From NCBI RefSeq assembly GCF_055900595.2, contig NZ_CM148325.1: DNA of 64,000 nt; one strand, 5' to 3'. The notes under the pieces were generated by a model. That model saw only the letters and a program-made list of their open reading frames with translations. It was not told where the DNA came from and made no database searches. Positions within the stretch are counted from its first letter, which is position 1. Each line of letters begins with the position of its first letter. The position numbers were made by a program, and so were the translations under genes. Below, in pieces: positions 44,077 to 44,099 of the stretch.

Positions 44077-44099
44077 AAGTTGTAATATAAATACATCTT
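44077..44099. promoter_or_regulatory. Candidate NsrR-type operator upstream of ygbA
   Basis: aagttgtaatataaatacatctt: AT-rich 11-1-11 imperfect inverted repeat resembling the remembered NsrR consensus, about 20 bp upstream of the ygbA ATG. Confidence 0.35.

Follow-up and report, generated by a model that had tools for sequence, protein, structure and literature searches.

The inverted repeat upstream of ygbA as a known NsrR operator with a predicted promoter overlap

The 23 bp at positions 44077-44099 of the window, by which we mean the whole 64,000-nucleotide (64-kb) stretch of DNA analysed here, raise the question of whether they are the operator through which the nitric oxide (NO)-sensing repressor NsrR controls ygbA, as the original prediction had proposed. 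Read from the window sequence, AAGTTGTAATATAAATACATCTT / aagttgtaatataaatacatctt occupies exactly 44077-44099, and as an inverted repeat its two 11-nt halves match each other at 8 of 11 positions, bearing out both the coordinates and the repeat that had been put forward. The operator and the ATG of ygbA at 44117 are separated by 17 nt, and the last base of the site lies 18 nt from the A of the ATG, so the spacing of 18 bp had been given correctly. On the reading argued for below, the features of the site and its gene are as follows.

44077..44099, no strand assigned: NsrR operator, a 23-bp 11-1-11 imperfect inverted repeat, AAGTTGTAATA-T-AAATACATCTT
44089..44099, minus strand: strong NsrR half-site, AAGATGTATTT as read on the minus strand, 15.0 of a possible 15.9 bits
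44077..44087, plus strand: weak NsrR half-site, AAGTTGTAATA, 7.7 bits, with its 3′ part common to the predicted -10 hexamer
44108..44112, plus strand: Shine-Dalgarno sequence GGAGG, read in the sequence and invariant among 13 Escherichia sequences
44117..44470, plus strand: ygbA coding sequence (117 aa), the regulated gene, assigned from the open reading frame, Pfam and RefSeq

The gene is indeed ygbA. Identical E. coli DNA carries the RefSeq name 'ygbA: nitrous oxide-stimulated promoter family protein', and the product matches the Pfam family YgbA_NO (PF11756) with 138.3 bits (cut-off 25; E = 1.5e-40) over profile positions 1-104 of 106. Its neighbours are mutS (minus strand, 41269-43830) and fhlA (minus strand, 44509-46623), which is the E. 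coli order mutS / ygbA / fhlA. The nsrR gene is absent from the 64-kb window and is present at an identity of at least 95% in 5,425 of 5,426 complete E. coli genomes, which is indirect evidence for the window's own strain.

The surroundings of ygbA have peculiarities of their own. The mutS-ygbA-fhlA junction (43800-44520) is a rare allele, found with at least 99% identity over its 721 bp in only 8 of 5,426 complete E. coli genomes, and most complete E. coli genomes are 90-95% identical to the window over this interval. The nearest match to the YgbA protein is the Escherichia albertii one (98%), and this, together with the rare junction allele, suggests that the region may have undergone recombination or be mosaic. 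A 59-aa open reading frame on the plus strand (43906-44085) ends within the operator and is named 'hypothetical protein' by RefSeq in an identical strain, with a shorter version elsewhere; since it has no Pfam match and its region is poorly conserved beyond Escherichia, it is probably not a real gene. Within the divergent mutS-ygbA promoter region, GCTGTTTTGCAGC followed by TTTTGCGTGA makes up a terminator-like hairpin on the plus strand (43977-43989); three such sites were found in the region, against 0.9 expected. The hairpin is probably due to chance.

Match of the repeat to the NsrR motif

NsrR sites with 11-1-11 repeats have been tabulated for E. coli CFT073, 27 in all (PMC5320621 Table 4), and a palindromic weight matrix was built from the 16 distinct sites among them that have a ChIP-seq peak, leaving ygbA out. 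Since ygbA is absent from the training sites, the test of its site by this matrix is not circular. The ygbA site scores 22.57 bits with the 23-bp matrix and ranks first among 63,978 window positions, and only 3 of the 16 training sites outscore it, so that the weight-matrix scan by which the original prediction was to be checked places the site first in the window and within the top third of the training sites. The exact probability of such a score is 9.9e-9 per position, so that 6e-4 matches are expected in 64 kb and 0.05 in a genome of 5 Mb, and it is still 7e-8 with the AT-richer base composition of intergenic DNA. None of 300 locally shuffled windows attained 22.57 bits, the best shuffle reaching 22.0 bits.

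The two halves contribute unequally to this score. With an 11-bp half-site matrix, the right half is the top half-site on both strands of the whole window. The left half, predicted to be the weaker one and found to be so, ranks about 103rd in the window, where some 100 other places match as well as this half does by itself. The right half AAGATGTATTT had been described as one mismatch away from the NsrR half-site, and this holds against the ytfE half-site AAGATGCATTT, the mismatch falling at a position that tolerates C or T; the consensus behind that description likewise agrees with the full ytfE site AAGATGCATTTAAAATGCATCTT.

Other matches to the motif lie in the hyc region of the window. The second-best match to the 23-bp matrix is AAATGACATTTCATCGGCATGTT at 51018-51040 (16.9 bits), between hycA (50490-50951) and hycB (51076-51687); it is identical to the hycB NsrR ChIP-seq site of CFT073 and belongs to the training set, and so its score is circular and is not evidence. 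An NsrR-like half-site, AAGATGAATTT (12.4 bits; 50389-50399, minus strand), is found some 100 bp upstream of where hycA starts, in the region in common with the hyp operon, and an identical 11-mer lies at 59536-59546 on the minus strand. The hypA gene has been reported as an NsrR ChIP target in K-12 and CFT073 alike.

The repeat is the ortholog of a published site. The NsrR site of ygbA in CFT073 is given as AAGGTGCATTTATATTACAACTT on the opposite strand (PMC5320621 Table 4); reverse-complemented to AAGTTGTAATATAAATGCACCTT, it matches the window at 21 of 23 bases, two being different. The K-12 MG1655 ortholog, AAGATGTAATATAAATACATCTT, differs at one base (22 of 23 match). The scores of the three alleles are 22.35 bits for K-12, 22.24 bits for CFT073 and 22.57 bits for the window. 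The inverted repeat upstream of ygbA is thus an already published NsrR site, real, strongly conserved and ordinary.

The membership of ygbA in the NsrR regulon, on which the original prediction relied, is supported by the literature on orthologs (PMC5320621, PMC2884951). In K-12, ygbA has been reported to be under NsrR regulation (Bodenmiller & Spiro 2006, as cited in PMC5320621), and ChIP-chip has detected NsrR on the promoter of ygbA (Partridge et al. 2009, as cited in PMC5320621). In a Salmonella Typhimurium nsrR mutant, the ygbA mRNA level is 31.8-fold higher (PMC2884951), and in CFT073 ygbA is counted among the known NsrR-regulated genes that are highly induced by nitrate (PMC5320621). 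The findings of Karlinsey et al. 2012, like those of Bodenmiller & Spiro 2006 and Partridge et al. 2009, are cited here through PMC5320621, PMC2884951 and PMC7082413. ChIP-seq in CFT073 shows no peak at ygbA, which its authors judge to be a probable false negative (PMC5320621); even so, it counts as negative evidence on occupancy for a closely similar allele.

Conservation across species

The conservation of the site was examined at 80 loci with close YgbA relatives, one genome per species, including Escherichia, Citrobacter, Salmonella, Klebsiella, Raoultella, Enterobacter, Kluyvera, Leclercia, Lelliottia, Hafnia, Rahnella and others. In 79 of the 80 species, the best matrix match of the whole locus of about 3.3 kb lies 12-21 nt (41 nt in Hafnia) upstream of the ygbA start. 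The median score of the ygbA sites is 18.8 bits, compared with 7.3 bits for the best match elsewhere in the same loci, and 73 of the 80 loci score at or above the weakest training site.

A check free of the matrix, a MAFFT alignment of the 110 nt upstream of ygbA anchored on the ATG, shows a sharp island of conservation at 44075-44101 with poorly conserved flanks on both sides. Within the island, the columns of the right half at 44091-44099 are highly conserved in the 80 species. The bases A1 (97%), A2 (100%) and G6 (99%) as well as T16, C18, A19, T22 and T23 (96-100%) are conserved; all of them lie outside the -10 hexamer described below, and A1, A2 and G6 fit the NsrR half-site. The conserved left and right positions mirror each other as an NsrR half-site demands.

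Variation within Escherichia follows the same pattern. Among 13 sequences, the common variants within the site are restricted to positions 4, 17 and 20, rarer ones being found at position 10 in one strain and at position 16 in another, and the flanks vary freely. The variable positions are the degenerate positions of the motif, 4 and 20 corresponding to half-site position 4 and 17 to half-site position 7.

Two loci of the set stand apart. The metagenome-assembled genome (MAG) of Enterobacteriaceae bacterium UBA5654 (L071) has a degenerate site, AAGAGGTAACATTCAAGCCTCTT, of 3.5 bits at 18 nt upstream of ygbA, the sole degenerate ygbA site among the 80 species; this may reflect a loss of NsrR control over ygbA or an error in the MAG sequence. 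A 420-kb contig labelled Chryseobacterium sp. 18061 (CACSKA010000005.1; L058) encodes a YgbA of the enterobacterial type with 82% identity and has an NsrR site of the usual kind 18 nt upstream of it, and this record is likely to be mislabelled or contaminated.

Predicted promoter overlap and alternative readings

Four bases of the site, T7, A8, A11 and T12, are 97-100% conserved in 79 species. Of the 16 NsrR training sites, 14 have T at position 11 and only 1 has T at the centre base, position 12, which is unconstrained, and so NsrR leaves the conserved A11 and T12 unexplained. The core of the sigma-70 -10 hexamer is TAnnAT, and the hexamer found at this place is TAATAT in the window and TATTAT in most other genera. 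Upstream of it, a conserved T.G at 44060-44062, with the G present in 89% of species, stands amid an otherwise unconserved stretch. A scan with the sigma-70 consensus called no promoter for ygbA, since the -35 element matches only 3 of 6 positions, and the following elements were therefore deduced from cross-species conservation.

44060..44065, plus strand: predicted weak -35 hexamer TAGTCC, matching 3 of 6 consensus positions, with a 17-bp spacer
44083..44088, plus strand: predicted -10 hexamer TAATAT
44095, plus strand: predicted transcription start, an A, placed from the position of the -10 hexamer

With these elements, the operator is predicted to span -18 to +5, and the transcript to begin with a 22-nt leader containing GGAGG. 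No useful report of a mapped promoter or a reporter fusion of ygbA came out of a text search of the literature. We infer that the left half is probably weak because its 3′ end doubles as the -10 hexamer of this putative promoter.

This raises the possibility that the left half is an AT-rich -10 element resembling NsrR DNA by chance and that NsrR contacts only the right half, 44089-44099, as a single 11-bp half-site. The low score and rank of the left half agree with such an operator, as do the conserved A11 and centre T12, which go against or beyond the preferences of NsrR, and NsrR may need no more than one 11-bp motif (Partridge et al. 2009, as cited in PMC5320621). However, A1, A2 and G6 lie upstream of the -10 hexamer and are conserved like their mirror partners T23, T22 and C18, and G6 misses the TG position of an extended -10 element by one base. 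A second half-site accounts for the conservation of A1, A2 and G6 and a -10 element does not, which argues for the left half still being a genuine NsrR half-site rather than promoter sequence alone. A single half-site operator is thus unlikely, though it is the best of the alternatives.

Whether the operator is dual-coded in a stricter sense, with T7, A8, A11 and T12 held fixed across Enterobacteriaceae as a -10 element at a cost in NsrR affinity, is an evenly balanced question. If so, the site would be deliberately asymmetric, and ygbA could have an NO threshold unlike the one of ytfE and other symmetric sites; the rare window allele (T4, A17, T20) might then shift this threshold slightly. 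Dual coding of this kind would be a refinement of a known system rather than a new one.

A more radical reading takes the whole conserved block as the core promoter of ygbA, namely its -10 element, discriminator and start, and the resemblance to NsrR sites as incidental. The TAnnAT element is a good one and its spacing to the conserved T.G at -35 is plausible, but nine consecutive positions from -4 to +5 are conserved as ATGCAnCTT, which core promoters do not conserve, and this stretch is a near-perfect NsrR half-site, the best in the 64 kb. The probability of about 1e-8 for the full site was obtained with a matrix made from unrelated promoters, and orthologs of ygbA are de-repressed in nsrR mutants (PMC2884951), which makes a core promoter without an operator very improbable.

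Least probable of all, and hardly credible, is that the repeat serves another regulator, such as FNR, NarL/NarP or a different Rrf2 protein such as IscR, or acts as a DNA or RNA hairpin. The repeat can form a weak hairpin (-3.4 kcal/mol; z = -2.2 against shuffles), but a transcript from the predicted start at 44095 would lack the left arm. The hairpin was rejected, this energy being marginal and 7 of 200 shuffles folding as well. The comparison with other regulators was made by eye and with FNR, whose consensus is TTGAT-N4-ATCAA; the repeat matches only 5 of its 10 specified bases, and other regulators have no positive support here. Other regulators are active under the anaerobic nitrate conditions in which ygbA is induced, but the published nitrate induction of ygbA has been attributed to NsrR de-repression (PMC5320621).

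It is therefore very probable that 44077-44099 is the operator through which NsrR controls ygbA. The motif match and its significance, the orthology to a published site and the conserved sequence and position come from this analysis, and the NsrR regulation of ygbA orthologs, the K-12 ChIP-chip result and the disruption of NsrR-DNA binding by NO come from the literature. According to the passages on the holo-protein in PMC9338935 and PMC4861436, holo-NsrR is a homodimeric repressor of the Rrf2 family with an iron-sulfur cluster, the details being those of the Streptomyces protein; it binds a 23-bp operator and is released on exposure to NO, as passages in PMC9338935, PMC5411485 and PMC11500311 describe. 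By extension, an NsrR homodimer with its iron-sulfur cluster would bind the 23-bp repeat at 44077-44099 and cover the predicted -10 hexamer and start, keeping RNA polymerase off the promoter; NO would react with the cluster, NsrR would leave the DNA, and ygbA would be transcribed under nitrosative stress. Occlusion of the -10 and start region when NO is absent is the most likely mechanism, as suggested by the overlap of the operator with the -10 and start, whose positions, like that of the -35, are themselves predictions.

The site would confirm that this strain keeps an NsrR-controlled, NO-inducible ygbA, a gene of the nitrosative-stress regulon. This matters little beyond correct annotation; the site was already known. 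The additions, modest in value, are the cross-species limits of the operator and the proposal that its asymmetry stems from the predicted -10 overlap. The cross-species footprint limits the operator to 44075-44101 and predicts the geometry of the promoter.

Comparison with known NsrR systems

The window site is like the published ygbA site of E. coli K-12 and CFT073 in lying in the mutS-ygbA interval, in ending 18 nt before the ATG and in its 11-1-11 architecture. Its allele shares T4 with CFT073 and A17 and T20 with K-12, all three positions being degenerate. Over the 58 bp around the site, only 13 of 5,426 complete E. coli genomes reach an identity of at least 99%, with most of the differences in the flanks.

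The crystal structure of the Streptomyces coelicolor [4Fe-4S]-NsrR/hmpA1 operator complex likewise shows an Rrf2 homodimer on a 23-bp imperfect palindrome, with release triggered by NO (PMC9338935), whereas the organism and the operator sequence are different and the regulon has only three genes. For enterobacterial NsrR, the cluster type and the DNA contacts have not been solved structurally, according to the passages on this protein in PMC10783083.

Closer parallels are the ytfE, hcp and hmp operators of E. coli, which are also 23-bp 11-1-11 repeats with the half-site AAGATGYATTT (PMC5320621 Tables 2 and 4) and sit near the promoter and the start codon of NO-stress genes (PMC5320621). The ytfE operator is a nearly perfect palindrome of 31 bits, whereas the ygbA site is asymmetric, as the scores of its halves show. 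Unlike the ytfE, hcp and hmp operators, the ygbA site has the inner part of its left half and its centre base fixed as TAnnAT, which is interpreted here as a probable -10 hexamer.
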